34,837 bases of DNA from an uncultured archaeon (GCA_964386335.1 CAYLRQ010000002.1:1-34837); one strand, 5' to 3'. Positions 5,871-26,340 are shown, counted from the first letter of the stretch. The notes: generated from the sequence alone by a model not told the origin. Translations and numbers: made by a program.

Positions 5871-8800
5871 ATGCATATAAATAGCTCTAAAAATATTAAA
5901 ATCTTATTAATATTTTTGCTATTTCTAATTATAATTCCCGTAGAGGCAAATCCCGCTTCTTATTTAACGGAAAAAGTTGATGCAAAATTTGATTATAATG
6001 GAACTTTAATTAGTTTGGATAATAAAGGCAGTGTTGAAGTAGAAATATTCAACAGAAACGATGTGCTACAAAACATAGAAATTATACTGTCAAGTACCTC
6101 AAATACGAATTTAAACGATAAAAAGGCCTATTCTGCTGTTGCTGCATCGCCTTCAATGGGAGATAAAACAAGACTGTATATAAATACAAATGAAAGTAAT
6201 GAGAGCATATACTACAGATTTTACAATGCTCCGCTTGTAGGCATGAATTTGAGTTATCAGAATGAAATTGGAGGAAGAGACCTAACTCCCGAGAAAAACC
6301 GAATTAAATTCAAACTTTATTTAAATTCAAGTAAAAATCTAAATGGTGTGGAACTTAATATAAAAGCAAAAAAAAATACTTATGGAAGAAACGACTCTCT
6401 AAATTTTATAGAAGGGAATGCAAGTAATGGCGATGTTCATTTAATAGATACTGACTCAGACAATTTTAAAGATAATTTGAGATGGATTGGAAATTTAAGA
6501 AAAACTGCGACAATAGATTTTGTTGCCGAGATTACTCCCGGAATTAATTATCCTGAAGATGAACTGAAAGATGATATTGACTCAAAAGAAAGTCATCTTA
6601 ATTATTCGCAACCATCTACTTTTACGGGAATAACTTTCTCGGATAGATTTGCGAGAGGACCAGTAAGACAGGGTGTAGAAATAATGGCAAAAACAAACTG
6701 GACTGTAAAAGGTTTTATAAAAAACATTGCTTATGGATTTATCTATTATATAGATCACTGGAATTTATACAAAGTTGGAGAAAATACGTCTTCGGCATCT
6801 GGAATGGTTAAAAGAAATATTCTTCCCGGAAAGTCGTTTTATACAGATGAATATGATACGGGCATACGGGCTTCCTCCACTCCAGAGCAAAGTTTAACAA
6901 AGCCTCCAGAGGTCTATTATTCGGTAGCATTTGACTGGAATGTTCTGTGGGGCGGATCAGAATACTACGGACTAATAGATGAAAGAATGAATCTACCCAA
7001 TTTATATCAAATGGATCTTGGTTTAAATAAAAGAATAGATATTATAAAAAATGATGCAAACGGAAGAATACTTGGCATTGAAGATGAAATAAAACACCTT
7101 GGGCATGCAAATATACAATTGAGCAATCTGAGTATAAATTTAACTGGTCTGAATGGATGGAAAGTTCTAAATCTAAAAATTTTCTATGTTAATAATACAA
7201 ACAAAACAGAAATAATCAACTATACAAAAAAAGAAAACTCAGGAAATATGGAAATAATATTGCCTTTGAATATTTCTGAGAAAATCAGATTAAATGATAT
7301 CATTCTTTTAAAATATAATCTTAGTGGAAGTGCAAAAGAAGAAAACAAAAAATATGTCTTTGGAATAAATGCGATAGCAATAACAAAAAGCGGAACTCCG
7401 ATAAAGAAAACTCTAGTTAGTGAAATAGAAGTTCCCGGGTTAAAACCTGTTGAAGAAGAAACGGGTGGTGGAGGGGCTGGTGGAACTTATCCAGAAATAA
7501 GAGAAACCGCGCAGATAATAAAAATTTCTGCCGAAAACAAATTTATAACCGATTATACAATAGAAAACAAAGTATTATTTAAGGTAATAGATACGGGAAC
7601 TAAAGGGATCAGAAATCCAACATATTTCTTATATCTGCCAGAAGATTCTTATTTGCATGTGGAAGATATAAAAATTACATTGATAAGGAAGGGTGTAGAA
7701 AAAGAATTAAATATTGAAATAGAAAAAATGGGCATAAAAGCCATAGGTAAAAAAAATTATCTGATATATGCCATTAAAAAGAAAACCGAACCCACGGAAG
7801 TAGATACATTGCATGATCAGGATATTATAAAAATACAATATAAACTGGATATTCCTCTGGGGACCAGCGAAATTATTACACGTGCCTATGGTTACAACTA
7901 TTACGAAGACAAATACATATTTGAAGACGAAGTAACCAAAGTAAGGAGAGAATACTGGAAATTAAGAAATTTGACCATAACAGAAAGTAAATTTGAAAAT
8001 AGAAAAATTTTTGTTGGAAAACCCGTAAGATGGATGAAAACAATAGAGATATACAATCCAAATGAGAGATCTGTAAAAGAATTGTACACAACAAAAGTTT
8101 TTGACAATAAACTGAACGTCAAAATACATGAATCAAGAAATGGAAGTACAAATAAGATAAACATAGAAAAAGAAGATAAAAGTACAGTTTCTTTTTTTGT
8201 AAACATAATGCCAAAAGAGAGAATTACCTATTTTGTTTTTGTAGATACGCCGCCAATTTTGGAAATAAAGAGAAATACAAACATTCTGGAAATAAAAAAT
8301 AAAAGTGTGAAAATTAGTTTGGATATAACTATTAAAAACTTCGCTAAATACCAATATAAAAATGCTTATCTTGAATTGCCTATACAAAATATATTAAAAT
8401 GCAATTTTAATTATTCTGTTATTGGAAATAAAACTGAGATAAAAATACCTGTAATAAAATCTTTTGAAAATAAAACTATAAAAATTGTTTATGTGGAAAA
8501 ACCCCCGCTATTAAAAATATATACAGATAAACTGAGATATAGATGTAATGAAATAGTAAATATTACCTTATTGATTGTGCAGGACAAAAAAAAAGGTTAT
8601 CTTGAAATAGAAATAAATGGTCCTGGAAATTCTCTAAATAATATTTATGCCGACTTGATTTCTTTGGAGAAGTCAGATACTAAAAAAAACATAGAAGTGA
8701 AACTGGAAAGATGTGCCACTGGAAATTATACAATATATGGGTATTACAAATCAAACTTCCGACCAATATTGATTTCCAAAGAAAGTTTTTTTGTTGATTG

Positions 8801-8933
8801 TGAAGAAGTTTATGACGTGCCTCTAATAATTTTTGTAATCCTCACAAGTATCCTAATAATCCTATTGGTAAAAACTGTTTATAGAAGAAAGAGTTGGAAA
8901 GAAGAAATCAAAGAACTAAAAAATCCTCGATAG
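5871..8933 (+). CDS. Secreted, C-terminally TM-anchored surface glycoprotein, paralog A of an unnamed family
   Basis: 1,020 aa. Signal-peptide-like N-terminus (ILLIFLLFLIIIPVEA). Many N-x-S/T sequons. Gly linker ETGGGGAGGT (7452-7490). C-terminal helix VPLIIFVILTSILIILLV followed by YRRKSWKEE. Colinear motif matches to ORF 19681..22953 (e.g. ARGPVRQG at 6651-6674 vs 22066-22089). Confidence 0.85.
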   Translation: MHINSSKNIKILLIFLLFLIIIPVEANPASYLTEKVDAKFDYNGTLISLDNKGSVEVEIFNRNDVLQNIEIILSSTSNTNLNDKKAYSAVAASPSMGDKTRLYINTNESNESIYYRFYNAPLVGMNLSYQNEIGGRDLTPEKNRIKFKLYLNSSKNLNGVELNIKAKKNTYGRNDSLNFIEGNASNGDVHLIDTDSDNFKDNLRWIGNLRKTATIDFVAEITPGINYPEDELKDDIDSKESHLNYSQPSTFTGITFSDRFARGPVRQGVEIMAKTNWTVKGFIKNIAYGFIYYIDHWNLYKVGENTSSASGMVKRNILPGKSFYTDEYDTGIRASSTPEQSLTKPPEVYYSVAFDWNVLWGGSEYYGLIDERMNLPNLYQMDLGLNKRIDIIKNDANGRILGIEDEIKHLGHANIQLSNLSINLTGLNGWKVLNLKIFYVNNTNKTEIINYTKKENSGNMEIILPLNISEKIRLNDIILLKYNLSGSAKEENKKYVFGINAIAITKSGTPIKKTLVSEIEVPGLKPVEEETGGGGAGGTYPEIRETAQIIKISAENKFITDYTIENKVLFKVIDTGTKGIRNPTYFLYLPEDSYLHVEDIKITLIRKGVEKELNIEIEKMGIKAIGKKNYLIYAIKKKTEPTEVDTLHDQDIIKIQYKLDIPLGTSEIITRAYGYNYYEDKYIFEDEVTKVRREYWKLRNLTITESKFENRKIFVGKPVRWMKTIEIYNPNERSVKELYTTKVFDNKLNVKIHESRNGSTNKINIEKEDKSTVSFFVNIMPKERITYFVFVDTPPILEIKRNTNILEIKNKSVKISLDITIKNFAKYQYKNAYLELPIQNILKCNFNYSVIGNKTEIKIPVIKSFENKTIKIVYVEKPPLLKIYTDKLRYRCNEIVNITLLIVQDKKKGYLEIEINGPGNSLNNIYADLISLEKSDTKKNIEVKLERCATGNYTIYGYYKSNFRPILISKESFFVDCEEVYDVPLIIFVILTSILIILLVKTVYRRKSWKEEIKELKNPR

Positions 8934-8941
8934 ATCGCAAA

Positions 8942-10369
8942 TTAATATCCCAATCTGCTGTGGAATTCCGTTATTTTCATCAGAACGCGCGGATTGCTTT
9001 CTTCCTGTTTTTCATATTCGGACAAAAGATGTATATACTGCTTTCTGGCCTCAGTATAATTTCTGGAATTTATTAACATCTGAATACGATTAATAAGTTC
9101 AAAAATTTTATCCTTTTTTTCTGATTCTTCCTGATTTATTATGACGGGTTTATAAATATATCTTGGCTTGGCATAGTTTATTTGTGAGGCTAATCTCTCT
9201 TCAGGAGAAATATTTTTCTTTGTTTTTTCCATATACGAGTTATTTTCAATTTTGCTGTCTATCTTCTTAGATAATCCGAGAAGTTTCATCTCCAGATCGG
9301 CAAATCTTTTGTTCAAATTTTCTTTTTCCAAATCCAATTGTTTTTTTATTTTTTCTTCATAGTCTTTTAGTTTATTATCTATGTACGTATAATCAACTCC
9401 CGCCAATTTTCCGCTTTGTTCTCTTTTTAGGGTTTCCATTCTCCTATCAAAAAACTGTTTAATTTTTTCTACTTCTTTATTTAATTCTGTCATATTTAGA
9501 CCTCCCGTCGTTTTATTGGTTCCTTTGATTACTTCAATCAGATCAGAAAACTTGCTCTCGGTATCGAATTTTAATTCGGCCAACTTTTCTTCTAATTCTT
9601 TATTTACTTTTTCTAATTCCCTTTTTTGTGCTGTTTCTGTTAATTTTAAAGACAATCTATCAACTGTTCTTAAAAGTTCTTTAAGTGTGTCCTCATTTGT
9701 TTCTATTTTATCTATATTGTTTCGTATTTTATTTAAATTTTCCTTCAGTTCATAAAATAAGGTTTCAACAGTTCCTGCATTCTTCTCCGTTTTATTTTTT
9801 AAATCTTCTACAATTTTAATTTTCTTATTTAATTCGTCTGCAATAGAAACAACATCTTTTAAACCTTTTATTTGTTCTATGGCGTTGGATAAATCCTTAA
9901 ATTTGCCGGATAGGATTTTAAGTCTATCTTCAATGGATTCTATTTTTGCGTTATTTTTTTCTATTTCGGCCTCCTTTTTCTCTAGATTTTTCAAAATTTT
10001 TTCTGGTTTTAATTCTTTAGCGATATCATATATTGTGTCAAACTTGCCTATAAGTTCGCTGTAATTTTTATCCAATTCTACCAACGAAGATCTCAATTCT
10101 CCAATTCTTTCGGAGAGATTAGTAATTCTCTCATTAACTTCTGATCTATTATTTTCTAAAATCTCGACACGGCCGAGCAATCTTTCAAGTTTCAGTGTTA
10201 AATCCACCAGGGATTCTTTTTCTGCATCTCTGCTTTCAAGCGAGGACAGGTCTTTTTTTTCATTTTTTTTTCTTCCAAATAACGTAAATTTCTTTTTTTC
10301 TTTTTCTTTCTCCCTTTTCTCAATATCTCGGAATTCTTCGGGAGTGATTATATTTTCTTCTTCTACCAT
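8942..10369 (-). CDS. Cytoplasmic long coiled-coil protein, function unknown
   Basis: 475 aa. No hydrophobic segment. Charged N-terminus (EKREKEKEKKK), then ~350 residues of heptad-like E/K/L/I/N sequence. Helical C-terminal block (IFELINRIQMLINSRNYTEARKQYIHLLSEYEK). The start codon lies 8 nt downstream of the giant gene's stop. Confidence 0.8.
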   Translation of the reverse strand: MVEEENIITPEEFRDIEKREKEKEKKKFTLFGRKKNEKKDLSSLESRDAEKESLVDLTLKLERLLGRVEILENNRSEVNERITNLSERIGELRSSLVELDKNYSELIGKFDTIYDIAKELKPEKILKNLEKKEAEIEKNNAKIESIEDRLKILSGKFKDLSNAIEQIKGLKDVVSIADELNKKIKIVEDLKNKTEKNAGTVETLFYELKENLNKIRNNIDKIETNEDTLKELLRTVDRLSLKLTETAQKRELEKVNKELEEKLAELKFDTESKFSDLIEVIKGTNKTTGGLNMTELNKEVEKIKQFFDRRMETLKREQSGKLAGVDYTYIDNKLKDYEEKIKKQLDLEKENLNKRFADLEMKLLGLSKKIDSKIENNSYMEKTKKNISPEERLASQINYAKPRYIYKPVIINQEESEKKDKIFELINRIQMLINSRNYTEARKQYIHLLSEYEKQEESNPRVLMKITEFHSRLGY

Positions 10370-10377
10370 AATATTCG

Positions 10378-13300
10378 CTAAATTTTTTCTAAGGAATTCT
10401 CCAAAGATGATATATATATTTCGGCCATCCTGAAGTTGCCCGTCTTAAGTTTATTTGTCGCGAGTTTGAAGTCCACCTCATAATCTTCGGTATAAACATT
10501 TCTTTCTTTTAGTTTTTTTATCTTCTCCTCAATAACTTTAAGCTTTGCTATATATTTTTTATACAACACGAGTTCGTCATCGCGGATTTTATGCGGATTA
10601 TGTTTTGTTGGCCTAAATTCAACAAAGAAGGGTTTTCCATCATTGTATTTGGGATATTGCATAAGTCCCGCACCAACACCCATTCTTGCAATTCTCTCCG
10701 AATATTGCTCTCCATATTTTGTTTTAACTTTATCTATGTCTGTCAACGATTTTGTATTTAACTGGAGTTCTGTCAAAACATTGCCTGCAATTGCTTCCTT
10801 AAAATCTGCCAGCACTTGTGAACACATAATAATGCCTATGCCCCATTTCCTGAATTCTCTTGCCGCTTTTTCCAGAGCAACATATCCTCCATGGCCTCCA
10901 TATTTCTCAAGTAAACGATGGACTTCATCAAAAACAATTACCAATTTTAATTCTGAACTTTCTTCCCAACTTTCTCTAAAAATAGAAGCAACAATATTGC
11001 GAACGGCTTCATCATATTCTCCGGATTTTAATTTGTTTAAGCAAAAAATGGTAATTTCTCCCGGGTTAATAAACTCCTTTATATTTAATTTAAAGTCCGG
11101 TTCTTCTACATCATAAATCAATCCGGGATAGGATTTTATATCAAAATCCCCCATATCAAATTTTTTGTATTTGCTTAAAAGATTATTATCCCTGCAGGGT
11201 TTAACAAAGCCCGTCCATTGCGCAGTTGGATCAAATACAATGACTGGTATTTTTTTGTCCAAAGCCTCTTCCGCAAATACAGAAGCAGAAACAGATTTTC
11301 CCGCTCCCGTTGCGCCAGCAACTATTATGTGAGTAGTCAAATCCTTTGGATCATAATAACAGTAATTATCTGTGCCGGCAAATTTTCCAATTTTAAAACC
11401 TTCTCTTGGAACTTTTCTATAATCAAGTGGATATAAGTATCTTTCCTCTTTTTCCTTTTCTTTCCTCCAAAGCAGATAATATCTCCATATATATGTGCCG
11501 CCAACTGCTACTGCCATCGCTAAAGCTAAAATTAATAATCCCACCGTTAGTGGAGATTCAAATAAGGGTTTAACCACTTCAAAAGTTGCCACATCCATAA
11601 TACTTTTTTCCTTATAATCTGCCCAGACTTCCAGAGTATAAGAGCCTTCTTCGGTGATATTTAAAGGCAAACTTTCTCTGACTATTGTTGTTGTTTCCAA
11701 AGTCGTATTTGTTTTCAGTTCTTCAATAATTTTATTTGTTTTCTGATATTTAATTATGTAAGTCAAATTCAGGGGATATTTTTTTCTTTCTCCCAGATTT
11801 ACCAATTTTACAATAAAATCCAAAGTTCCTTTTGGGTTTATTGTTTTACTTGCAATTTCAACTTTAACAGAGTAAATTGGTGCCGCCGATTCTAAAACCC
11901 TGATCGTAACGGGAATGCTTTGTTTTTGCCCTTCTGCTCTTATAATAATATTTCCCGCATAAGTTCCAATACTCTGATTGGTAAAAACTGTCAGGTAAAT
12001 ATCTAATTTTTTGGTTTCATTTGGTTGTAGAGTCAGTTTATTAGTACTTAAACTTAATAGGTCTCGCAAACCCTCTGTAATTTCCAGAGTGGTTGAAACA
12101 TTTTTATATAACTTATTTTTCATAGAAAGCCAATAAGTTTTAAGTTCTCCGCGGAAAACCCTGACGTCTCCAATATTCGTATCTATAACAAGAGGAAATT
12201 TTTCTATTGGACAGTCATTTGGACAGTTCTGCCAATTTTCTCCTATTTCGCAGACATTATTTCCGCAAATCGCTTTCTCCTCTTTTGAAGGAATGTAACT
12301 CTGTCCTCCACCTCCTCCTCCACCGCTAGTTCCTCCGCTCGTTTCTTTTTTTTCTTCTGGTTTAGAATAAGGAGTGCAGGGAACCAAACTGCTGCCAGAA
12401 TAACAGGCTTCTGCAACAAAGAACGCCGACAGGCTTGAAACGGTAAAATTGAACTTCTTGTTTTCTGGTGTGGCATTTAATATGTCTGAACTGGTTAAAT
12501 CCGAATTGCATTTTCTCTCAATATAGTTCCAATTATGACATTTAAAAATTCTAAGATGCTGCGGATTAATTGCCCAACCATATTTTTCAACTACGTAATT
12601 ATAAGCATCTGTGACATCCAAAATCAATCTCGCTTTACTAAGATTTATATTTGTGTCCACAACAAATCCGAGAATAGGAACATGAGTTTCGTCTGGTTTG
12701 TTCACCTCTGTTTTATTTGAAATCTCTATATAAGTTCCAAAATAATCAAATTTAAATGGATTTTTTATTTCATTTTCGGTTAAATCTAAGTTTGCATCAT
12801 AGAAAATTATTTTCTGACCGAATAAATCAACATCCACATCATATTTTCTCTTGTGCAAAGTCCAGTTATATGTTTTATTATCTCTGATGGAAAATTCATG
12901 CATTTTGTAGAGTTCTGCTAAATTTTTTTCTTCCCGGTAAAAAGTGAAGTTTGCATTGATTTTCTCTCCATCCGGGTTTGTTAAATTTCCCGTCATTTGT
13001 ATTGGCAGATAAATATCAAACCACCCCTTTTTGCTGCTTACGGGATTGCCTTCGGTATCATTTGCATAGACAATTATGTCGTAATCGCCTATCCGTTTTG
13101 GATTGGAAAAATTGAATACGAAATTTCTTTTATCAAAATCGTTTTCGGCGGGCAAAGTATTATTGGAGATGGGATATATCCTGTCTAATTTCCAATTGCT
13201 TCCAGTGTGATTGACGGTCGCCCATACAGAATCTATCTCTTTGTTATCCGTAACATTAACCTTAAAAATTATGTAAGGCAAAGTATAAGAAGTATTATCT

Positions 13301-16300
13301 ATAAAATATGTGTGAATATTCGAAAACCAAGGCGAAGTATAATCTTTATAAATAATTGCCTCTTCCTCTACATCGGAAAGAACAACTTCTTTTTTGGTAT
13401 AATTTCCAATAACTTCCAGATTATTTTTAATGGGGTTGTCTGTAATATTTGGAGCTGTACAAGTAATAAACCATCTTTGGCGTATTGTATGAAAATATAA
13501 ATCTGTAATAATGCATTCCTCTCCGCCAATTAAAATTGTCCAGTTTATGTCCTCCTGAACCGGAACATTTCCTTCCTTTGATTCTACTTCTATTGTTAAA
13601 TTTTGATTTGGTGAAACTTCTTCTGGATAAGGATCTTCCTTCTTTGGAGAAATAATATCAACGGTGAAATTAATTATTGTGAATGTGATAGGAATTTCAA
13701 CGGATTTTGGAGTAGCACTTTCATCCAAGTTTTCAATTTTTAAGGTATAATTGTAAGTTCCAATTATTAGAGAGTTATTATCAGTATCATAAAAAATTTC
13801 AACGGTTTTCTTTGTTTTGCTTGTTACACTTACTGAAGTTTGATTTGCTTGCTTTGTATCATTTAATGTTAAATAATTAATTGTTGTTTCATTTCCCGGG
13901 AGGATGGATAAATTAAATTCAAAATCTGCTTCTTTTTTGTTTGTGATTATAATTTCGCCGAGTTTATTTATTTCTTTTTTTAAACCCACTGTTTTGTTTA
14001 GGTAAATCGGAGAAACTTCCCAATCCTGGGAGGTTATATTAAGAATTAAAGGGAGATGGTCTGTGCAATTTCCGGTGCAATTTTGGATGGTTGCAGTGAT
14101 ATTCAGATGGTAAATGTTTATATAAGAATTGTTATCCGGTATTGTCAAAATCATGTTTATTGTAGAATTACTTGCTTTATTTAAACCGAAATTATTATTG
14201 CTGAAAGTTGTCCAATTATTTATCAAATCAGAATTATCTCCGGTTAAATTTAAAATAATATTGGTTAGATCTACATTTCCATAATTAAGTATGGTGAAAT
14301 TTGCCGTTCTGCTTGCCGTGATGGGAACGGTAAGAGTTAAATTATTTTCGGAGAATTTTATTCTCTTGTTTTCTTTAACATAAATTGAGATATTTTCCAT
14401 TGTATTATTTTTTGTACCGTCTGCATTCTGCCATTCAACGGTGAAATTTATCTGGTTATTTCCGATCTCCGCCCCGGCAGTTACAGTAATATTAATCTGT
14501 CTAGTGCAATTTTTTCCTGTTGGTATGGGTTCGCAATATATGGCCGGAATAAAAATTCCGATTGGTTTACTGACAGTTATTAAAGGATTGTACATTGTGC
14601 CATTTCCAGTATTATTCAGAAAGAAATTTAATAAGAGGGTTGCATTGTTCTCTATTGTTATGCCCTCCGCTGTTGAAGTGTTCAAACTCAGAATTAAATC
14701 TGCCGTCGTATTTCCAGAAGATACCTCAACCTTAATCTTCTTTTCATTAAGTTCCGTTGCATTATAAAAAAGATTCGGTTGATCTGCTATATTACAGGAA
14801 AAATTATAGTTGCCTTCGCCTCCAACTTTAGAATTTTTAACAGATACTCCCTTCTCATCTGTCAGATTAAATCCAATTAGCGTGGTGGTATTATAAAAAC
14901 TAACATTATACTTCGGTATTCCTTTTTCTGTATAATTATCTGCAACTTTGCACAATAAAGATAAATTTGCATTCTGCATGCATTTATAATTTAATAGACC
15001 TTCCGTTATATTAACAAAGGTGCAATAGTTGGAAACTATTGTAAGATTATTGATATAAGCAAAGCCCGTTAAATTAAAAAACAGGGTTTTTTTATCAGAA
15101 TCGTAAAACTGTTTTTCTGCCTCTGCAACTAATTTTCTTCTCCCAACATCTTCTGTTCCATTTAGTATATAATTCGTCGTATTTTCACCTATTTTTTTCT
15201 TTGAACTCAGATAAATTTGAACTGGCTCGCCAGAATGGAAATTTACACACTCTCCACTTTCATCCGCAAAGCAGAGATAATCAATTAGAGCAAAAACGGC
15301 ATCTCTCTCCCCCGCACCGGTATTTTTTTCGTTCCAGATAACAACGGATATGTTCCTCGCCGATGCGAAACTGAGATTGGTGCAAACATCGATGGTCCAG
15401 TTTTCCGGTTCTGGAACATCTCCGGAGGGATCCGTATTTTTTATAATTTCTTCTGTTAAATTGCAAATAACTTCTCCAACTTTTATATAGAATTCTCCAC
15501 TTGAACTGCTTTCATTAAATTCTCCCCAAGATTTGTATTTTATTTTTATTGAAGTTGGATAAGTAAAGTTAGGGAGTCTTTGGAATAACTTTGTTTCTCC
15601 ACCATTGGCAGATAGATTTGCAAAATAGTCGGAACCAATATGAGAAATATTGGTATGGCAGCCCACTGTGCTGCAAATAGAAGAATTCCAATATGAAAGG
15701 TCTCCAGAATCAAAACCTGCGTTTAAAATATTATAAGTTATATTATAAGAATTTAAATTTTCTTTCTTTAAATTAATTTCAAAAGTTTTGCTTTCATTTG
15801 CCGATAAATTAACCAAAAAAACCAATTCGGTTAGATTAGTCATATATTCTTGACTCTTATTTATTTCTAATTTGTCCGCTGTTTTCCACGAATATAAAGA
15901 AAATGGCAGTTCTGTTTCATTGAATAAAATTTTGGTTTTATTCAAATTCCAGTCTTTCAATTCAAAATCATCTGAACTAAAAAAACTTCCGTTCAAGATT
16001 ATCGGATAGTTGGTTCTATTTTTTCCGGATAAATCTTTAATTGTAAGATTTAATTTATATTTATTTACAAGATACCAATTGATCAATACTTCTGTAGTAT
16101 CATTACCACAATTATCCTTTGCAGAAGCATTCAGAGTAATATTTTGTCCCTTGTAATAGTTTCTCTCTTTTGGAGAAATTATTGTCAAATTTAATTTATC
16201 TCTTAAGATTATTTGTTCATCGGTTTGATTGTCTGAGATATTATAAAAATCATGGGTTCCGTTAATTTCAACAGACAGATTTTTTATTCCGACATTTAAA

Positions 16301-19300
16301 CTGCAATTTGGGGTATAAATTAAAGAACAGATTCCAGAAGAATTGGTTGTATTGGTTCCGATAAAGATTTCATTTAAATAAAAATGACAAGAATAACTAG
16401 AAAGATTTGCATAATTTTCATATCTATCAACTAATCTGGCGGAAAATGCCGCCTTTTCATTCTTATAGAAAGAAAAATTAACTGGATTTAAAATTGTTGG
16501 TTTTAACCATCCTTTTATGGTCAGATTATATTCTGTCGAATTTTTATCGTTGTAATAATCATCATTTTTTATTCCGATGTGCCAATTTGTTTTTCCTGGC
16601 TCAAAAGTTTGGCCCGGGTTAAAACTAAATTTGCAATAGCCGCTGGAATTGCTTTTTGTGGAATTTATCCACTTATTGACCCAAAGAGAACAATTCGCTC
16701 CAATAACTGTTTCTTCCGAATTCGTATCATTAATAAAAACAGATAAAGTTGCTGTTTCATTCCTGAAGACAACTGAATTGTTGCCTTCGCAACTATCCGC
16801 TAAATAAACAACAGAAACATTGTGTTTCAATACATTAAAATCTACAGAGGTGGTATTTCTCGGGTTATGAAATTTCGATGTGTTGTTTGAATTATAATCA
16901 AAATATTCAATTTTAAATTTGCTTATTCCAGTCCAGTTTTTGTCTGAGGTCAGATTAAATTCTACAATAGTTCCATTAGTGACGTTTTTTGAACCTTTAT
17001 TTACCCACGTCTTTGTTTTATTTTTAAAAATAAAAAGAACAACATTTATTGCATCATTGTCAATATCAGTTACATTGGCGGAAAATGTAAAATTTGCGCC
17101 CCAGATATCAGAAGATGGAGAGACCTTTAAATCGGTTAAGTTTGGTGGCAAATTGTAAGAACCTCCAACCAGATAATTTGTGGGATTGTTTGGACTCAAA
17201 GTTGGTTGCTTCCATTTGAAATACATATTGTTATTTATTTTTTTCTTGCAAACATAAAAAGTATCCGAACCAACCATTATTTGCGTGTAAGTTGGATTTG
17301 AAGTATTGCAATTATCTGTCAAATTTGGTGGGGTGATATCGTAAAAAGTTCCATTGCCATACCAATCAACCAATAAAAATTCTTCTCCCTCTATCTGCGA
17401 GTCATTAAGTTGCCACCATGCCGTCGCGTTTTTAAAAGTTCCGTTCGTAGCATTCAAAGTTAAATTTATTCTTCTCTTATAATTATCCATTCCATAAGTG
17501 GAGTAATAATCAGAGGTATTATATAAATGAATCGGCGTGCTCGTTTCCTGTGAACTGTCCCAAAAAAGAATGGAAAAGTTTGCATAGTTCCCGGCATTTA
17601 AGATGATTGGATTTGAAGAAATATTGCAAACTCTCTTTTCTATTCCAAATTCGGTTATATTTGTCACATTATAAGAAGTTAGATTAAAATCGCATTTTGT
17701 TGCACTATTATCAACAACAATATATTTAATTGAAATGTTCTCTGCTGGGATTCCCTTAAAAGTAATGTTATAAACCTTGCTTCCAACCGATTCGTTTATT
17801 TTAATATCGCTCGTTCTCGACCAAGCAGCAACATCCTTTTTGTAAGAAATAATGCCAGAAACATTGTAGACATATTCAACACTCAAATTAGATATATTTA
17901 ATTTTCCCTTGAAATCGGAATGAAAAATCAAAGGAATCTGACAATTATTTGCTGTATCGAGTGTAGTGCAGGTATTTATATAATTATTAATTGCGGAAAC
18001 TAAATTTTGACCTGTTGCAATTTCTGATGTTCTCAACTTTGTTTTTGAACTCTTCCAGTCTATTGTCGAATCATTGCCAACATCTATGCTTAAATTTGTC
18101 GGAAAATAATCAAAGTTGAAGACATAAATTTTTCCATCTATTGCTCCAGCAACTACTTCACTACCCTCATCTGTTGTCAGGTTACCTATTGCTATTGATT
18201 TTATGGTATCTCCAGCTACGAAATTACCTATCAAGTGTCCCGTACTATTTAAGATATATAATTCTTTATTATCACAACCTATAACTATCTCATTTCCTGC
18301 ATAATCATTTGCAATTTCTCCAATTCTAAGGCTGTTAACAGAACCTCCTGTACTATAGTTTTTAATTTCTCCTCCTGTAGAATTTAAAATATAGACTTTA
18401 TTGTCTCCAGTTCCAATTACAATTTCATTTCCCGGGTCAGAAGTAATATCTCCAAGGTCTATTGTATTTATTGATGAATCGCCAACAGTGATATTACTAA
18501 CAATTATTCCTGCAGAATTTAAAATATATATTTTTCCTCCCGCACAACCTGCAACAATCTCATTTCCTTCATCTTCAGTGAGATTTCCTATTACAATCTC
18601 ATTTATAGTCTCCTCAACAGAACTATTCCATTCCAAATTTCTAGACCGATTTATGACATAAATAATTGTACTGGAACAAGCAACAATCTCGCTATCTTCA
18701 CTGCCCACTATATTTCCTATTTTTACAGAGTTGATACTACCTCCTGTTGTATAATTCCATATCTCGTTACCAGTGGAGTTCAATAAATAAACCTTGCCAT
18801 CTCCAGAACCAACAACAATTTCTTCTCCAAGATCAGAAGTTACATTTCCTACATCTGTTGAATAAATCGGATTGGGAGAGATATAATATTCTTTTACTAA
18901 CGTTCCATTGCTTCCGTACAATATACTTACCTCTCCATCATAACCGGAAGTACCGGTTACAATTTCATTTTCATCTCCATGAAATATATTGCCTATTGAA
19001 ATTCCTAAAGGTGCTACATTGGAGGATTTCACAGGAGAATTATAAATCGTTGTAAGTTTCCCGGTCAAATTCATGCTGATATTCTGCACTGTCGCATTTT
19101 TTGGAATTGATAAATAAAATGTTTTATTTCCGCCATTTTCTGGAAAATCAAATTCTGCGGAAGAAATAAATGAAGCAGAATCATTAAATTTTGTCAGAAT
19201 GTATCTGAAAGAAAGGTTGCTCAAATCCAGAATATATTCTCCTTTTTGAACTCCCAAAAATCCTCCCGCAATATGAACATTTATAAATAGTGATGATAAA

Positions 19301-19350
19301 ATCAAGGTAAGACCTGCGGCAAAAATAGAAGTAAGCATCCTCTTTTCCAT
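10378..19350 (-). CDS. Giant (2,990 aa) type I membrane protein: propeller-tipped glycosylated ectodomain + single TM + cytoplasmic FtsK/HerA-superfamily ATPase
   Basis: Uninterrupted 8,973-nt ORF. Signal-peptide-like N-terminus MEKRMLTSIFAAGLTLILSSLFINVHIAG. Seven tandem blades. Very dense N-x-S/T sequons in the ectodomain. One hydrophobic helix about 370 aa from the C-terminus. Walker A and B motifs in the tail. Confidence 0.9.
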   Translation of the reverse strand: MEKRMLTSIFAAGLTLILSSLFINVHIAGGFLGVQKGEYILDLSNLSFRYILTKFNDSASFISSAEFDFPENGGNKTFYLSIPKNATVQNISMNLTGKLTTIYNSPVKSSNVAPLGISIGNIFHGDENEIVTGTSGYDGEVSILYGSNGTLVKEYYISPNPIYSTDVGNVTSDLGEEIVVGSGDGKVYLLNSTGNEIWNYTTGGSINSVKIGNIVGSEDSEIVACSSTIIYVINRSRNLEWNSSVEETINEIVIGNLTEDEGNEIVAGCAGGKIYILNSAGIIVSNITVGDSSINTIDLGDITSDPGNEIVIGTGDNKVYILNSTGGEIKNYSTGGSVNSLRIGEIANDYAGNEIVIGCDNKELYILNSTGHLIGNFVAGDTIKSIAIGNLTTDEGSEVVAGAIDGKIYVFNFDYFPTNLSIDVGNDSTIDWKSSKTKLRTSEIATGQNLVSAINNYINTCTTLDTANNCQIPLIFHSDFKGKLNISNLSVEYVYNVSGIISYKKDVAAWSRTSDIKINESVGSKVYNITFKGIPAENISIKYIVVDNSATKCDFNLTSYNVTNITEFGIEKRVCNISSNPIILNAGNYANFSILFWDSSQETSTPIHLYNTSDYYSTYGMDNYKRRINLTLNATNGTFKNATAWWQLNDSQIEGEEFLLVDWYGNGTFYDITPPNLTDNCNTSNPTYTQIMVGSDTFYVCKKKINNNMYFKWKQPTLSPNNPTNYLVGGSYNLPPNLTDLKVSPSSDIWGANFTFSANVTDIDNDAINVVLFIFKNKTKTWVNKGSKNVTNGTIVEFNLTSDKNWTGISKFKIEYFDYNSNNTSKFHNPRNTTSVDFNVLKHNVSVVYLADSCEGNNSVVFRNETATLSVFINDTNSEETVIGANCSLWVNKWINSTKSNSSGYCKFSFNPGQTFEPGKTNWHIGIKNDDYYNDKNSTEYNLTIKGWLKPTILNPVNFSFYKNEKAAFSARLVDRYENYANLSSYSCHFYLNEIFIGTNTTNSSGICSLIYTPNCSLNVGIKNLSVEINGTHDFYNISDNQTDEQIILRDKLNLTIISPKERNYYKGQNITLNASAKDNCGNDTTEVLINWYLVNKYKLNLTIKDLSGKNRTNYPIILNGSFFSSDDFELKDWNLNKTKILFNETELPFSLYSWKTADKLEINKSQEYMTNLTELVFLVNLSANESKTFEINLKKENLNSYNITYNILNAGFDSGDLSYWNSSICSTVGCHTNISHIGSDYFANLSANGGETKLFQRLPNFTYPTSIKIKYKSWGEFNESSSSGEFYIKVGEVICNLTEEIIKNTDPSGDVPEPENWTIDVCTNLSFASARNISVVIWNEKNTGAGERDAVFALIDYLCFADESGECVNFHSGEPVQIYLSSKKKIGENTTNYILNGTEDVGRRKLVAEAEKQFYDSDKKTLFFNLTGFAYINNLTIVSNYCTFVNITEGLLNYKCMQNANLSLLCKVADNYTEKGIPKYNVSFYNTTTLIGFNLTDEKGVSVKNSKVGGEGNYNFSCNIADQPNLFYNATELNEKKIKVEVSSGNTTADLILSLNTSTAEGITIENNATLLLNFFLNNTGNGTMYNPLITVSKPIGIFIPAIYCEPIPTGKNCTRQINITVTAGAEIGNNQINFTVEWQNADGTKNNTMENISIYVKENKRIKFSENNLTLTVPITASRTANFTILNYGNVDLTNIILNLTGDNSDLINNWTTFSNNNFGLNKASNSTINMILTIPDNNSYINIYHLNITATIQNCTGNCTDHLPLILNITSQDWEVSPIYLNKTVGLKKEINKLGEIIITNKKEADFEFNLSILPGNETTINYLTLNDTKQANQTSVSVTSKTKKTVEIFYDTDNNSLIIGTYNYTLKIENLDESATPKSVEIPITFTIINFTVDIISPKKEDPYPEEVSPNQNLTIEVESKEGNVPVQEDINWTILIGGEECIITDLYFHTIRQRWFITCTAPNITDNPIKNNLEVIGNYTKKEVVLSDVEEEAIIYKDYTSPWFSNIHTYFIDNTSYTLPYIIFKVNVTDNKEIDSVWATVNHTGSNWKLDRIYPISNNTLPAENDFDKRNFVFNFSNPKRIGDYDIIVYANDTEGNPVSSKKGWFDIYLPIQMTGNLTNPDGEKINANFTFYREEKNLAELYKMHEFSIRDNKTYNWTLHKRKYDVDVDLFGQKIIFYDANLDLTENEIKNPFKFDYFGTYIEISNKTEVNKPDETHVPILGFVVDTNINLSKARLILDVTDAYNYVVEKYGWAINPQHLRIFKCHNWNYIERKCNSDLTSSDILNATPENKKFNFTVSSLSAFFVAEACYSGSSLVPCTPYSKPEEKKETSGGTSGGGGGGGQSYIPSKEEKAICGNNVCEIGENWQNCPNDCPIEKFPLVIDTNIGDVRVFRGELKTYWLSMKNKLYKNVSTTLEITEGLRDLLSLSTNKLTLQPNETKKLDIYLTVFTNQSIGTYAGNIIIRAEGQKQSIPVTIRVLESAAPIYSVKVEIASKTINPKGTLDFIVKLVNLGERKKYPLNLTYIIKYQKTNKIIEELKTNTTLETTTIVRESLPLNITEEGSYTLEVWADYKEKSIMDVATFEVVKPLFESPLTVGLLILALAMAVAVGGTYIWRYYLLWRKEKEKEERYLYPLDYRKVPREGFKIGKFAGTDNYCYYDPKDLTTHIIVAGATGAGKSVSASVFAEEALDKKIPVIVFDPTAQWTGFVKPCRDNNLLSKYKKFDMGDFDIKSYPGLIYDVEEPDFKLNIKEFINPGEITIFCLNKLKSGEYDEAVRNIVASIFRESWEESSELKLVIVFDEVHRLLEKYGGHGGYVALEKAAREFRKWGIGIIMCSQVLADFKEAIAGNVLTELQLNTKSLTDIDKVKTKYGEQYSERIARMGVGAGLMQYPKYNDGKPFFVEFRPTKHNPHKIRDDELVLYKKYIAKLKVIEEKIKKLKERNVYTEDYEVDFKLATNKLKTGNFRMAEIYISSLENSLEKI
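10381..11484 (-). other. Cytoplasmic P-loop ATPase domain (DUF87/HerA - VirB4 - VirD4 - FtsK superfamily), last 368 aa of the giant protein
   Basis: Walker A HIIVAGATGAGKS (GATGAGKS at 11293-11316) followed by IPVIVFDPTAQW. Walker B LKLVIVFDEVHRL (~10924-10944). REFRKWGIGIIMCSQVLADF block. No N-x-S/T sequon anywhere in these 368 residues. Confidence 0.8.
11485..11553 (-). other. Single transmembrane helix of the giant protein
   Basis: PLTVGLLILALAMAVAVGGTYIW is followed by the basic stretch RYYLLWRKEKEKEER (positive-inside). It is the only long hydrophobic stretch after the signal peptide. Confidence 0.8.
12208..12339 (-). other. Gly-run linker plus 4-Cys module in the giant protein
   Basis: SGGTSGGGGGGGQ is encoded at 12301-12339, and CGNNVCEIGENWQNCPNDCP at 12208-12267. 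This separates the long distal ectodomain from two membrane-proximal Ig/CARDB-like modules. Confidence 0.7.
18106..18993 (-). repeat. Seven tandem ~44-aa blades (FG-GAP / PQQ-like beta-propeller), residues 120-415 of the giant protein
   Basis: Repeating unit G[ND](I/L/V)x..D.g.EIV.G...GK(V/I)Y(I/L)LNS.G. The seven blades start at GNIFHGDENEIV, GNVTSDLGEEIVV, GNIVGSEDSEIVA, GNLTEDEGNEIVA, GDITSDPGNEIVI, GEIANDYAGNEIVI and GNLTTDEGSEVVA. Confidence 0.8.
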
Positions 19351-19411: not shown

Positions 19412-19684
19412 TTATTGAGCTTTATTATTATCCGGTCTCTCTATATTTCTTCCAACATTAATTGCATTTCTTAATTCACTAACAGAATCTCTCAATTCTC
19501 TTATGCTTTTTGTAAGGATCAGTTCTTCATCATCAAATTTTTTTGTAATTTTCCTAATCTGTCTGAATTCAAATTCCAAGATGGCCAGATAAACAATAAT
19601 AACAAGAGAGAGCAAAAGCAGCAATTCTGTAATGGGTATGTTTATTCCAAATAAATATACATATCCTGTTATTCCTTCCATCAT
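19412..19684 (-). CDS. Small single-pass membrane protein with a coiled-coil-like tail
   Basis: 90 aa. TM helix ELLLLLSLVIIVYLAILEF followed by RQIRKITKK and a helical charged tail. Its ATG overlaps the stop of the upstream paralog B gene (ATGA at 19681-19684). Confidence 0.7.
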   Translation of the reverse strand: MMEGITGYVYLFGINIPITELLLLLSLVIIVYLAILEFEFRQIRKITKKFDDEELILTKSIRELRDSVSELRNAINVGRNIERPDNNKAQ

Positions 19685-22600
19685 TTATTTTGTTTTTTAA
19701 TAATATAAAATCTTTTTACACTCATATAAAGGAGAATTATGGCGAATAATATTGTTAAATAACCCACTAAATTTCCATAATTTGCGGTTGTACCAACAAT
19801 ATAGAAATTTCCTGTTCCCGTCGCCAGAATTGCTAAATCGGATCTCAATCTGCTTTCCGCTAAATACGTTCCGGTCGGGGCTCCAACTGGAACTCTAAAT
19901 CTTTCGGAGATACTCGTTTTATCTATCGGATCTAATTTCCCCAAATCTTGTATATTTGAATAAACCAGATTCCTTTCTGGAGTGTACACTTCAGTTTCCA
20001 GATAAGGATTATTTATTTCTTCTCCGCCATGAATAACTAAAATATCCAGAGTTACTGTCGAATTCAAACTATATCTTTCCTTGTCTGGAGTAATAATTAT
20101 TTTGGGATAACTTTGCTTATATCTTATATTTATTTCTTTTAAACCTTTCGCTGGAAATTTATTTATTAATATGGTTGTCAGATCTTTTCCACCTGTATAG
20201 GATAAACTATTTCCCAAACCATCTTTAACGGAAAGAATATTGTCTCTGGAAATTGGTAAGTTTATGGCAACATTTTCATAGTCTTCCATTGCAAGGCTCC
20301 TCAAGAATATTGACATTTTTAATTCAACCATCTTGTTTTCCAACTTCTTTATTACTTCAACGTCTCTATCCGTTTCCAAAACGGGCGGAGTTAAAATTCT
20401 GATATCATAGTTTCTCGTTTCCAGAGGTGCCAGTCTCGTTTTCCAAACCATCACGGTGGTTCCATTTTCTTTTTTGAAAACAACTTTTTCATCTATTTTC
20501 TCTCCTTTTTTATTCAAATAAGAAACAAATCCGTCGGTAGTATCTTCAAAAACATCTATTTTAAATTCGGATTCTACCCATCTTTGATTTGGATTATAAA
20601 CATCAAAATCTTTAACCCAAGCAACGGGATTTCCCACAGTTATTGTCCTCGCTGTCAGGAAATCTGTTTGTTTTATTATTGGCTCTACCAGTGGACTTGG
20701 AACTATAACTCTAACAACTCCATAAGCTGTAGAAAAGACCTTTTTACCAAGAGCAGGGTCAAAACCTGCCAGTTCCATCGGTATTTCATATAAACCCGAT
20801 TGGGTTATATTTATCTGATATAATATTTTAACTGCAGCACCACTGCTTAAAGTCCACCCGCTTTTATCGCCATTTGTATATTCACAGGCATGGACTTTAG
20901 TTCCATCGGATAAAGTAATGGTTCCTCTATCAGTTACATTATAATCCTCGCTAACACCGCAACTCCAGGTTGAACCGTCTGTTGAATTGCAAAAAGTTAC
21001 AGAAGATCTGGAACAAGCAAAGTCGGTTCCCAAAGGAACATAATCAACAAATTTAATTCCGGTAATTTCGTCTCCAAAAACCTGAGCAACCAAACTTCCA
21101 TTCACTAAAGTCGGATTTGCCGGATCCGGAACCCACAAATCTTTATAACCAACCAATTGTTTTCCTGAAGTGGACATTGACTTGGCGGGTAAATTTTCTG
21201 TTTCCGGTGTTCCGCTTTGAGTTGTTATAGTTGAATTTCCAGTAAAATTAAAAACATCTCCCAATTGTAAATTTGACGGCGAAGATACTTCATAAAATAA
21301 TTTTATTTTTTCTCCATTTTCTAAATATTTACCAATATTTGTTGAACTTAAATCAGGTATTGTAACATTAACCAATCCATTATTATCTCCGCTTGGGTCT
21401 GTAACTGTAACAGTTACTCCGTTTGTCGTCCCCGTTCCCGTTTTCAAAGTATAATCTGTACCATTATTAAATGAAACAATTATTGAGGTCTCATCTATAT
21501 CAAAGGGAGATCTCTGAGATCCGCTGGTTGTATTTCTGGGAACAACACTCAAAATAACAATTTTCTTTCCCGGAGCATTGTCATCTCCTTGATAAGTAAC
21601 TTCATCTGTTATGTTAAAAGTTGTTGCCGACTCAATAGCCAGATAACCGCCAGTAGTTTTTGTTGGAACCATATCAATTTTGTATAAAGTTGGTAAATCT
21701 AAAGTTGTATTAATATAAGAAACATAATTATCTGGATTCGTATCGTTCCAGATTATATGCCAGTCAAAAGAAGAAGCTACATAAGGCTTTGTTCCAGTTA
21801 TATGAACTCTGGTGGTATCATTAGAATAATCCGGGTCTGTTGTATATAATCTTCCATAATCTGCCGTAAAGTTTGATGGGCTAAAGGTTCCCTCCTGCAA
21901 TTTATTTGTTACAGCCCCCGTTGTTGCACTTACATTGTAAATTGCCCAATTTGAAATATTATAGGTCAAAACATTTCCATTAACTTCTGTAGAGTTCTTT
22001 GCCAGAATAGTTATAAATCCTCTGACATCCCAGGCTCCGCCTCCGCTCATTTCGGCCATATCAATTCCCTGCCTGACAGGACCTCTCGCATATTTATACG
22101 CTATTGTTAAACCAGTCAAAGTTGAGGTTTGGGAATAAGAACTTTTTACCCCCTTATCAGATGAAGCAGAATCCAAATTTATATTTGTATTGCCATTAGC
22201 AAAGTTGTCTGTTTCAATAATATTTGCGTAAATAGTAAAGGTTTGTGTTCCTCCCGCATTTATATCGCCGCTCCAGGTTATTCTGTCATAATAACCATCT
22301 GCGCCATCGCTTGAAGATCTAGAACCTGAAGAGGTATAGGTAATATTTACGGCATCTGCCCCACCATTAGTATCTGTATCAAACTGGATTACGATCTCTA
22401 CATTTGCTAAATTTTTGGATGTTGAAGGATTGTGTGCCGTTATTACAAAAGTCATATTATTTGTTGAGCCTCCGGAACCAATATTATCGTGATCGTATAA
22501 ATCATGACCTCCCTGTTCATTTGAATAAGAAGTAACATTAAATTCTATTGCTGGGGCTTTATTTGCATTTGTAATCTTATAATAATTCTGATCCTCTCCA

Positions 22601-23796: not shown

Positions 23797-23820
23797 AGAA
23801 ATCTGTAAGGGAAAATTAAA

Positions 23821-24942: not shown

Positions 24943-24998
24943 ATCTTCCAATGAAGAGCAGAGTTTTGAGAGGTCTGGATAAATAAAAAAATAATATT

Positions 24999-26339: not shown

Positions 26340-26340
26340 T

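Follow-up and report, generated by a model that had tools for sequence, protein, structure and literature searches.

Background

Why an archaeal surface protein of almost three thousand residues should end in what appears to be a cytoplasmic ATPase is the question raised by a minus-strand open reading frame (ORF) in DNA from an uncultured archaeon (GCA_964386335.1, CAYLRQ010000002.1:1-34837). The 34,837-nucleotide (nt) stretch was analysed as a whole and is referred to below as the window. The ORF (10378..19350) is one uninterrupted ATG-started frame of 8,973 nt and 2,990 codons, by a wide margin the longest in the window. In this paper, we report that its product is very probably a compact Aenigmatarchaeota member of the SPEARE class of surface proteins, as judged from homology, and that its tail is placed by sequence profiles and predicted fold closer to HerA than to VirB4.

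SPEARE proteins were defined by Hamm et al. (2019, PMC6642349) as very long, mostly extracytoplasmic proteins with a cytoplasmic region that is conserved and a transmembrane (TM) segment close to the C-terminus, the original definition also including at least one laminin-G domain together with serine-protease and toxin-like segments. The listed proteins ranged from 655 to 8,553 amino acids (aa), SPEARE-type proteins took up as much as 4% of a genome (Ca. Nanopetramus SG9), the protein of Ca. Nha. antarcticus was detected by proteomics, and homologues of the tail were noted in Woesearchaeota, Aenigmarchaeota, Micrarchaeota and Altiarchaeales. The tail itself was read as a type III restriction enzyme and proposed to degrade imported DNA, and a possible cleavage separating it from the ectodomain was hinted at (PMC6642349). 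Reva et al. (2023, PMC10266531) rejected the restriction-enzyme reading and disputed the laminin-G, protease and toxin-like segments as defining; they described a signal peptide, an Ig domain, two PQQ/WD40-like propellers, about 75 Ig domains, a TM segment, a 'VirB4/TraG-like ATPase' and a coiled coil, noted a paralogous ATPase downstream, and proposed that these proteins form secretion 'straws' into the host. Later papers repeat the secretion-straw view. The named proteins are NAR1_1133 of Ca. Nanohaloarchaeum antarcticus (5,998 aa), SVXNc_0300 of Ca. Nanohalococcus (9,409 aa) and BNXNv_0298 of Ca. Nanohalovita (8,880 aa) (PMC6642349, PMC10266531).

A very probable compact member of the SPEARE class

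The window protein carries the homologous P-loop tail, the single C-terminal TM segment, the large size, the leader, the propeller and the Ig-like domains of SPEARE proteins. Its tail is 51-54% identical over 98-99% of its length to three short forms, namely P0051 from Ca. Nanohalovita, P0056 from Ca. Nanohalococcus and P0067 from SG9, the last of which (AQV86_02330) is a SPEARE locus tag listed by Hamm et al. (PMC6642349). Such short forms make up a family of 550-640 aa in Woesearchaeota, Aenigmarchaeota and Nanohaloarchaeota, in which a leader precedes one or two Ig-like domains, a TM segment and the same ATPase. The two that were looked up each lie directly downstream of a giant gene, one of 10,543 aa on an ENA contig (L001) and one of 8,880 aa in Ca. 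Nanohalovita haloferacivicina (L002, CP107255.1), and the latter is BNXNv_0298 of Reva et al. by genome and by length. Both giants end in the same linker, two Ig-like domains, TM segment and ATPase, and the last ~1,200 residues of the window protein align with their C-terminal ~1,150 residues at 32-35% identity.

A first-pass annotation, made by a model from the sequence, had described a surface protein with a translocase-type ATPase tail, suggested a role in host attachment or cell-to-cell transfer in an episymbiotic archaeon, and known of no characterised example. The claim of novelty fails because both the architecture and the idea of a conduit or host transfer are already found in Hamm et al. 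(2019) and Reva et al. (2023), and the architecture is largely that of a named family. What is new here is the HerA-clade assignment of the tail, a near-universal coiled-coil partner, the absence of type IV secretion system (T4SS) companions nearby and the compact form, and no new category is involved. The placement among DPANN archaea agrees with our results, as the closest loci among the matches listed and the named members of the protein's sequence cluster are metagenome-assembled genomes (MAGs) of Ca. Aenigmatarchaeota.

The likeness to nanohaloarchaeal SPEARE proteins extends to the order of parts (leader, propeller or propellers, long beta-rich or Ig-like ectodomain, single TM segment, P-loop ATPase and terminal coiled coil) and to the downstream coiled-coil gene that both kinds of locus share. 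In contrast to them, the window protein is three times shorter, has one propeller rather than two, and gave no Pfam match at E <= 0.1 for laminin-G, serine-protease or toxin-like segments. No short-form ATPase gene stands between its gene and the coiled-coil gene, and a search for a second ATPase copy in the window found none; the cluster is lineage-specific, with two surface proteins of about 1,000 aa and a 90-aa TM protein, and the host is a low-GC member of the Aenigmatarchaeota, not a halophile.

A scan of one genome per GTDB species yielded at least 584 loci of the family, the closest among the matches listed being Aenigmatarchaeota MAGs with 83-84% tail identity. The 81 loci examined include 18 complete ORFs with lengths of 2,909-3,106 aa and another seven of roughly 2,200 aa; many of the remaining ORFs exceed 3,700 aa and are cut off by the end of the locus. 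Two tandem ATPase-tailed genes occur in 12 of these loci, usually a giant followed by a short form of 550-730 aa that repeats only the two Ig-like domains, TM segment and ATPase and is 62-72% identical to the C-terminus of the neighbouring giant. The arrangement suggests either rings of mixed composition that carry few stalks, or a duplication or gene conversion of recent date. Giant and short form are separated by a gap or overlap of 0-1 nt in L001 (131-11662), L002 (207-11887), L023, L025, L026, L064, L071, L074, L078 and L079. The class of about 2,950 aa to which the window protein belongs is without a short-form paralogue. Members are also present on a near-genome-length 1.9-Mb contig of Ca. 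Hydrothermarchaeum profundi (MTMF02000009.1, L042), where our hydropathy threshold missed the TM helix of the homologue, and in MAGs labelled Methanosarcinales (L010, L064, L071, L074) and Undinarchaeota (L073).

A genuine fusion of ectodomain and ATPase

The first-pass annotation had raised the possibility of a chimeric assembly. The fusion proved genuine: the 90%-identity cluster of the protein holds six independent full-length assemblies from ENA, NCBI and JGI with lengths of 2,989-2,991 aa, and a search with the entire protein found dozens of others, about 2,900-3,100 aa long and 33-59% identical to it, with 99-100% query coverage in nearly every case. All of these carry PF01935, and a propeller match in Pfam is listed for about two thirds; the search also returned a second class of about 2,200 aa. 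Thirty-three full-length orthologues (2,909-3,105 aa, mostly from Aenigmatarchaeota MAGs) were aligned with MAFFT, and the ectodomain was colinear with few gaps, at a mean per-column identity (32 other orthologues against the cluster representative, per 100-residue block) of 0.25-0.49 as against 0.51-0.78 for the tail. The same fusion is present in the 8,880-aa gene of the cultured-consortium genome of Ca. Nanohalovita (CP107255.1), where the short form is an additional gene downstream.

The family is widespread among sequenced proteins too. In a library of 50%-identity representatives, 347 proteins matched at E <= 1e-30; the best 150 included 104 of at least 1,000 aa, 66 of at least 2,000 aa and 21 of at least 4,000 aa, and representatives of the family span 350-7,878 aa, the maximum being reached within the same 150. 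One 468-aa protein from ENA (P0083) is 59% identical to 84% of the tail, with precomputed Pfam matches to proteasome-subunit families (PF00227, PF10584), and may be a mis-called or fused ORF.

Membrane topology

Only two segments of the protein are hydrophobic on a Kyte-Doolittle (KD) scan with a window of 19, residues 5-34, which follow K/R residues and correspond to the proposed signal-peptide-like N-terminus, and residues 2603-2621. The second (KD 2.25) lies within one continuous helix (2600-2635) in the AlphaFold2 (AF2) model, is followed by the basic stretch RYYLLWRKEKEKEER, and has a hydrophobic counterpart in 33 of 33 orthologues. N-x-S/T sequons total 156 against about 51 expected from composition, and all of them precede residue 2565; the tail has none where 1.2 would be expected. 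The earlier hand counts (6 in residues 1-100, 4 in residues 101-200 and 0 in the tail) were exact. The same split holds for all 33 full-length orthologues, with 75-174 sequons outside and 0-2 in the tail. Ectodomain cysteines are conserved across the orthologues as neighbouring pairs (461/470, 553/575, 681/701 ... 2271/2281), which are probably disulfide-bonded, while cysteine conservation in the tail is limited to C2843 in the MCSQ motif and, less so, C2719.

Since the sequons, the putative disulfides and the basic stretch agree independently, the first 2,600 residues are placed outside the cell and the ATPase inside, in keeping with the outside/inside split at a single helix that the first-pass annotation had proposed. 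The protein is thus predicted to be led by a leader and to be mostly extracytoplasmic, with a TM helix near its C-terminus and a cytoplasmic tail. The further suggestion that its polarity is inverted relative to other membrane-bound members of the superfamily is misleading, because the TM helix precedes the ATPase just as it does in FtsK, VirD4/TrwB and CedB/CedD. The real difference from these membrane-anchored relatives is the huge, signal-peptide-led ectodomain ahead of the TM helix.

Class of the ATPase tail

The 368-aa tail had been assigned from its motifs to the FtsK/HerA type, and both profile and structure searches bear this out. Pfam returned DUF87 (41.8 bits) and HerA_C (42.9 bits), both above their gathering thresholds, and only marginal matches around Walker A for other families: ResIII at 23.8 bits in a tail-only search, confined to the segment from Walker A to Walker B; TrwB_AAD_bind at 22.3 bits (gathering score 20.5), spanning only 43 residues; and FtsK_SpoIIIE at 20.4 bits, below its 24-bit threshold. 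Among 67 family members, DUF87 and HerA_C were found in all 67, ResIII in 40, AAA_10 in 33, T4SS-DNA_transf in 28, TrwB_AAD_bind in 23 and FtsK in 20; weak profile matches to TraC and VirB4_plasma were also seen. The VirB4 N-terminal domain PF03135 (CagE_TrbE_VirB) was not found by Pfam in the window protein or in any of the 67. It has been reported in the literature for the short forms, but is absent from P0051 and P0056 up to E = 10 in current Pfam, and the N-terminal 260 aa of these two proteins are a leader and extracellular Ig-like domains. NCBIfam gave sub-threshold matches only, the best being CedD (39.6 bits against a cut-off of 600), and the HerA equivalogs scored 20-32 bits against cut-offs of 800-970.

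The best PDB sequence match was YjgR, a 'HerA-like helicase' (11kk, E 1e-6), followed by HerA of S. solfataricus; the YjgR match covers Walker A and the region from Walker B to REFRK, and its identity is low and motif-limited. The AREGRKFGVGL..SQ segment of HerA is aligned with AAREFRKWGIGI..SQ of the tail. The AF2 model of the tail alone (predicted local distance difference test, pLDDT, 91.9; predicted template-modelling score, pTM, 0.91) was searched against the PDB with Foldseek, and the hexameric DNA translocase HerA (4d2i) came first (E 4e-13, TMq 0.54), followed by SIR2-HerA, HerA-NurA and DUF4297-HerA and then by TcpA (4e-9, eighth), FtsK (1e-8), DndH-C and B204, the packaging ATPase of STIV2. 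The top 50 matches consist wholly of HerA, FtsK, TcpA, DndH-C or STIV2 B204 entries, with no VirB4 structure among them.

The motifs of the FtsK-HerA superfamily, as reportedly set out by Iyer and colleagues in 2004, are a RecA-like core, Walker A, a Walker B of the form hhhhDE, an Arg/Lys block and a polar S/T-Q ending the next strand. All are present in the tail (Walker A from residue 2679, Walker B from 2803, REFRKWG from 2831). The 67 members share without exception the Gly, Thr and Lys of Walker A, the D-E of Walker B, the R-K of REFRKWG and the S-Q pair, and this invariance argues for an active ATPase. Because the Pfam matches to DUF87 and HerA_C, the Foldseek ranking and the sequence matches to YjgR and HerA all point the same way, the tail is, on its sequence and modelled fold, an FtsK-HerA-superfamily P-loop ATPase closest to the HerA/DUF87/DUF853 clade and closer to HerA than to VirB4. 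From its motifs and by analogy with its relatives, it probably forms a ring and turns over ATP. The stretch between the TM helix and Walker A is only about 55 residues long and is modelled as a helix and two short strands, and no HAS beta-barrel is present in the AF2 models. The ATPase is thereby placed about 30 residues below the membrane, the distance being made up by the cytoplasmic extension of the helix and a short linker.

The ectodomain

The seven tandem blades noted in the first pass begin at residues 114, 162, 206, 249, 294, 339 and 383, are about 44-48 aa long and share the motif G-N-E-I-V...DGK-Y-LNS-G. Pfam beta-propeller models match residues 118-357, and the PDB sequence matches of the blades are the 'Cake' and 'Bagel' designer propellers and entries named 'Cell surface protein'. 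The propeller is the best-conserved part of the ectodomain, with a mean per-column identity of 0.46-0.49 at residues 301-500 (32 other orthologues against the cluster representative of the window protein, per 100-residue block).

The ectodomain is rich in the residues first reported for its long central stretch (N 12%, I 9.6%, T 9.1%, S 8.2% of the ectodomain), and no Pfam family was found in the ~1,900 aa of that stretch (residues 431-2336). Beyond it, the Gly run and the four-cysteine module CGNNVCEIGENWQNCPNDCP were recovered at residues 2338-2381. Of the 33 orthologues, 64% keep the mini-module and the others show a clean deletion of it, which is the behaviour of an optional cassette placed after the Gly/Ser linker and ahead of the first Ig-like domain; its form CGNGxCExGENxxNCPxDC occupies residues 2362-2380 (window 12211-12267). 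An AF2 model of residues 2361-2990 (57 sequences, pLDDT 91.8) consists of two beta-sandwiches, a continuous helix, a RecA-like domain and three terminal helices. The sandwich pair, which corresponds to the two Ig-like modules read from the translation, was matched by Foldseek to tandem Ig/FnIII-like proteins (RbmA, WxLIP and HYDIN-type Ig).

Gene neighbourhood and the coiled-coil partner

The ORFs of 82 neighbourhoods were clustered, and only one near-universal partner emerged, a coiled-coil protein family present at 72 loci and encoded directly downstream on the same strand at 70. The gap between giant and partner has a median of 13.5 nt, with many 4-nt overlaps, and the two genes are translationally coupled. 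The partner has the conserved motif ERIS-LSEEIGELRS, and its profile matched only generic coiled coils in the PDB (MCP and designed bundles).

On the minus strand of the window the order is the 1,090-aa gene, the 90-aa gene (4-nt overlap with the stop of the former), a 61-nt gap, the giant gene, an 8-nt gap and the 475-aa partner gene (Table 1), and the same arrangement is kept in the closest Aenigmatarchaeota loci. The family of the 1,090- and 1,020-aa surface proteins occurs at 25 of the 82 loci, and in about 10 Aenigmatarchaeota loci the 90-aa protein is encoded immediately ahead of the giant gene. The two paralogous surface proteins may belong to the envelope or S-layer and act together with the giant protein. 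All four neighbours (475, 90, 1,020 and 1,090 aa) gave coiled-coil noise or nothing in Pfam to E <= 5, and a PDB sequence search with the 1,090-aa protein gave 0 matches.

Other partners were looked for in the same 82 neighbourhoods. No polytopic membrane family is conserved there, the largest with at least nine TM helices being found at four loci, and neither a VirB6/CedA-like channel nor a VirB2-type pilin gene is conserved. NurA nuclease and Mre11/Rad50 genes were absent from the window as well as from the 82 neighbourhoods.

Table 1. Coordinates of the giant ORF, its parts and the adjoining genes in the window
Feature	Residues	Window coordinates	Strand	Evidence or remarks
Whole giant ORF, 2,990 aa	1-2990	10378..19350 (stop codon included)	-	Very probable SPEARE-type membrane-anchored surface protein with HerA-like ATPase tail; 33 colinear orthologues, six assemblies
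N-terminal leader	1-34	19249..19350	-	MEKRM then hydrophobic stretch; signal peptide or signal anchor; KD 1.8-2.1
Seven-bladed beta-propeller, predicted distal tip of ectodomain	114-430	18061..19011	-	Repeats, Pfam, PDB sequence matches
N/T/S/I-rich sequon-dense ectodomain, ~1,900 aa	431-2336	12343..18060	-	Composition, conserved Cys pairs
Gly/Ser-rich linker and four-Cys mini-module CGNNVCEIGENWQNCPNDCP	2337-2381	12208..12342	-	Sequence; orthologue alignment
Ig-like beta-sandwich 1	2387-2486	11893..12192	-	AF2 pLDDT ~90; Foldseek tandem Ig/FnIII matches
Ig-like beta-sandwich 2	2493-2592	11575..11874	-	AF2, Foldseek; homologous to N-terminal half of 550-640-aa short-form paralogues
Single TM helix	2603-2622	11485..11544	-	KD 2.25; AF2 helix; hydrophobic segment in 33/33 orthologues
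Predicted cytoplasmic tail	2623-2990	10381..11484	-	Juxtamembrane motif RYLYPLDYRKVP, HerA-clade RecA-like ATPase, C-terminal three-helix region
Walker A GATGAGKS	2679-2686	11293..11316	-	G, T, G, G, K invariant in 67 family members
Walker B LVIVFDE	2803-2809	10924..10944	-	D and E invariant in 67 family members
REFRKWG block, then MCSQ	2831-2837	10840..10860	-	Matched in the alignment by AREGRKFG...SQ of HerA (S. solfataricus)
C-terminal helical or coiled-coil region of tail	2924-2989	10384..10581	-	AF2 helices at tail positions 302-327, 333-347, 351-367
Partner gene, 475-aa cytosolic coiled-coil protein		8942..10369	-	8 nt downstream of giant gene
90-aa protein, one TM helix and coiled coil		19412..19684	-	Immediately upstream of giant gene
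1,090-aa surface protein, leader and C-terminal TM anchor		19681..22953	-	First gene of apparent operon
1,020-aa surface protein, paralogous to the 1,090-aa one		5871..8933	+	Convergent with the cluster

The cluster is flanked by housekeeping genes (SMC, ScpA, SepF and cmk; glmS, glmM-like and glmU-like) and is therefore chromosomal; no tRNAs were found in the window. Some of the flanking genes are unusual in themselves. The SMC protein has only 809 aa (98-2527, minus strand), whereas typical SMC proteins have about 1,150-1,200 aa, which implies a much shortened coiled-coil arm; ScpA and SepF lie alongside (3641-4300 and 4450-4806, both minus strand), and no ScpB was seen in the window. The glmS gene (23140-24942, plus strand) occurs as two ORFs in the same frame, one of 218 aa for the glutamine amidotransferase (23140-23796) and one of 373 aa with the double SIS (23821-24942), with TGA and TAA between them, and is either genuinely split or decayed. 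UDP-GlcNAc genes adjoin the sequon-rich cluster (23140-28208 and 30917-31906), namely the split glmS and genes resembling those for phosphoglucosamine mutase and GlmU, and beside them are a glycosyltransferase of family GT2 and an ORF that weakly matches the STT3/AglB core. Near the window edge, a 126-aa ORF (34443-34823, minus strand) matches S_layer_C, the S-layer outer domain.

Comparison with known systems

HerA, as represented by 4d2i, by HerA-NurA and by the antiphage complexes SIR2-HerA and DUF4297-HerA, is the best match of the tail by fold and by Pfam, with the Walker motifs, the AREGRKxG-type block and the S-Q motif all aligned. Unlike HerA, the tail has no HAS barrel, is tethered to a TM helix and scores far below the NCBIfam equivalog cut-offs, and the place of a NurA, SIR2 or DUF4297 partner is taken by the coiled-coil protein. 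A further resemblance is to YjgR/DUF853, and NCBI lists several orthologues under the name 'DUF853 family protein'; YjgR itself, as far as is known, is bacterial and soluble and lacks both an ectodomain and a TM helix.

The type IV coupling proteins (VirD4/TrwB and TcpA) share with the window protein a membrane anchor N-terminal to the nucleotide-binding domain, as the TM segment or segments of TrwB illustrate, and TcpA is among the nearest Foldseek matches. The window protein differs from them and from VirB4 in that no all-alpha domain and no VirB4 N-terminal domain were detected in it and in its enormous ectodomain, and no other T4SS genes lie nearby. FtsK/SpoIIIE are likewise membrane-anchored ring ATPases of the superfamily, and the FtsK motor is a close structural neighbour of the tail; these proteins, and EssC/EccC, have several TM helices and no large ectodomain. 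EssC/EccC of type VII secretion systems, being members of the same superfamily, show that movement of protein is possible too.

In the Sulfolobales, CedD has a TM helix, an N-terminal domain and a HerA/VirB4-like ATPase, and is required for DNA import (PMC11868833). The DNA-import ATPases CedB and CedD resemble the window protein in having a TM segment ahead of the ATPase, and CedD is the top NCBIfam match of the tail, though far below its cut-off. In contrast to the Ced system, no CedA/CedE channel or Ced pilin is found near the giant gene, and Ced proteins are without an ectodomain.

Proposed mechanism and alternative explanations

The account we favour, and regard as reasonably probable, is that the SPEARE-class protein uses an oligomerising HerA-clade tail to cluster its stalks and to handle a polymer at cell-cell contacts. 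To our knowledge, every solved member of the FtsK-HerA superfamily oligomerises as a ring, and the tail would do likewise under the membrane, most likely as a hexamer, thereby clustering several stalks into one surface assembly. ATP hydrolysis and the coiled-coil partner would then be coupled to polymer handling at the contact site. The substrate would be DNA rather than protein, because the nearest structural relatives all move DNA; taken separately, DNA handling by the tail is tentative and protein secretion is rather unlikely. Since the neighbourhoods showed no channel partner conserved in the membrane, the ring may work from the cytoplasmic side, by docking, feeding or pulling, and not itself make up the membrane conduit.

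Several points weigh against this account. The ring is ascribed to the tail by analogy with its relatives, and the tail, with its short stretch ahead of Walker A, is without the HAS-barrel, the domain that joins HerA to its partners. A pore wide enough for double-stranded DNA is an unlikely product of six single-pass helices, and no polytopic membrane protein is conserved in the neighbourhoods. The preference for DNA follows from the identity of the structural neighbours. The presence of the family in Ca. Hydrothermarchaeum profundi and in MAGs labelled Methanosarcinales, outside the classical DPANN episymbionts, weakens the case for its specificity to symbiont-host attachment and makes a strict symbiont-host role insecure. 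Finally, the laminin-G and protease domains of the original SPEARE definition were not detected by Pfam.

Of the alternatives, one dispenses with transport. The ring would assemble or anchor the stalks into a fixed surface structure beside the two S-layer-like proteins, and may couple the coiled-coil partner to the ectodomain by passing on force or a change of conformation, a form of inside-out signalling. The only near-universal partner is indeed soluble, a coiled-coil protein, with no channel protein conserved alongside, the cluster includes two paralogous TM-anchored surface proteins of about 1,000 aa, and the solved HerA complexes are assembly platforms for NurA, SIR2 or DUF4297, according to the titles of their PDB entries. 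The length of the protein, moreover, is fixed within the orthologue range and its colinearity is nearly gap-free despite an ectodomain identity of 25-49%, and it therefore resembles a fixed structural element and not a variable adhesin. The strictly conserved catalytic residues suggest instead an ATP turnover of the translocase kind, and we know of no precedent for an FtsK-HerA ring serving as a pure anchor. On balance, we consider a non-transport role of this kind improbable.

A bolder proposal is that giant and partner constitute a two-gene membrane machine, distinct from type IV secretion and widespread in DPANN and some other archaea, in which a HerA-clade ring on single-pass helices, with an obligatory coiled-coil partner and bundled glycosylated stalks, would drive DNA uptake or hand-over, or stalk movement, at contacts by means of ATP. 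We judge this unlikely as it stands. If true, it would represent a new class of envelope-spanning apparatus, of which the 'solo' form of about 2,950 aa in Aenigmatarchaeota would be the simplest version.

The published alternative for the nanohaloarchaeal orthologues is the type IV secretion-like straw, in which a VirB4/TraG-type ATPase drives protein effectors into the host through a channel that the ectodomain forms or guides (Reva et al. 2023, PMC10266531). The weak profile matches to TrwB_AAD_bind (just above gathering), T4SS-DNA_transf, AAA_10, TraC and VirB4_plasma are in its favour, as are the rank of the coupling protein TcpA in the Foldseek search and the cytoplasmic bridges between symbiont and host that have been published from cryo-electron tomography of the Nanohalococcus consortium. 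Set against these are the precedence of HerA over VirB4 in both Pfam and fold, the lack of a VirB4 structure in the Foldseek top 50, the Ig-like extracellular N-termini of P0051 and P0056 where PF03135 would be expected, and the want of a VirB6/CedA-like polytopic protein or a pilin conserved in the 82 neighbourhoods. For the window protein we therefore find this mechanism a rather poor candidate.

The restriction endonuclease degrading imported DNA, as published by Hamm et al. (PMC6642349), is very improbable. Its support in our data is the weak ResIII match seen in 40 of 67 members, but ResIII is the helicase-type P-loop subunit and not a nuclease, DUF87 and HerA_C outscore it in every member, the fold is HerA-like, and in the AF2 model the 368 aa leave no room for a nuclease domain; domain and fold analysis effectively refute it, and Reva et al. 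rejected it likewise (PMC10266531). Least credible of all is an assembly or annotation artefact that merged a surface-protein gene with a separate membrane ATPase gene by frameshift or chimeric join, since, although related genomes do have separate genes of 550-730 aa (leader, two Ig-like domains, TM segment, ATPase), no leader peptide is present within the join region, and the explanation is rejected on the six assemblies, the 33 colinear orthologues, the predominance of long proteins among the cluster representatives and the published consortium genome.

Implications

The tail annotation shifts from 'restriction enzyme' or 'VirB4/TraG' towards the HerA clade, and this assignment and the lack of T4SS-like channel genes alongside both constrain mechanistic models. 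DPANN archaea depend on cell contact, and SPEARE-type proteins are the most conspicuous candidates for transfer between partners. Throughout the Aenigmatarchaeota, a compact version is conserved, with about 2,950 aa, a single ATPase gene and a near-universal coiled-coil partner, and this form of about 3,000 aa is an easier structural target than the halophile proteins of 6,000-9,400 aa.

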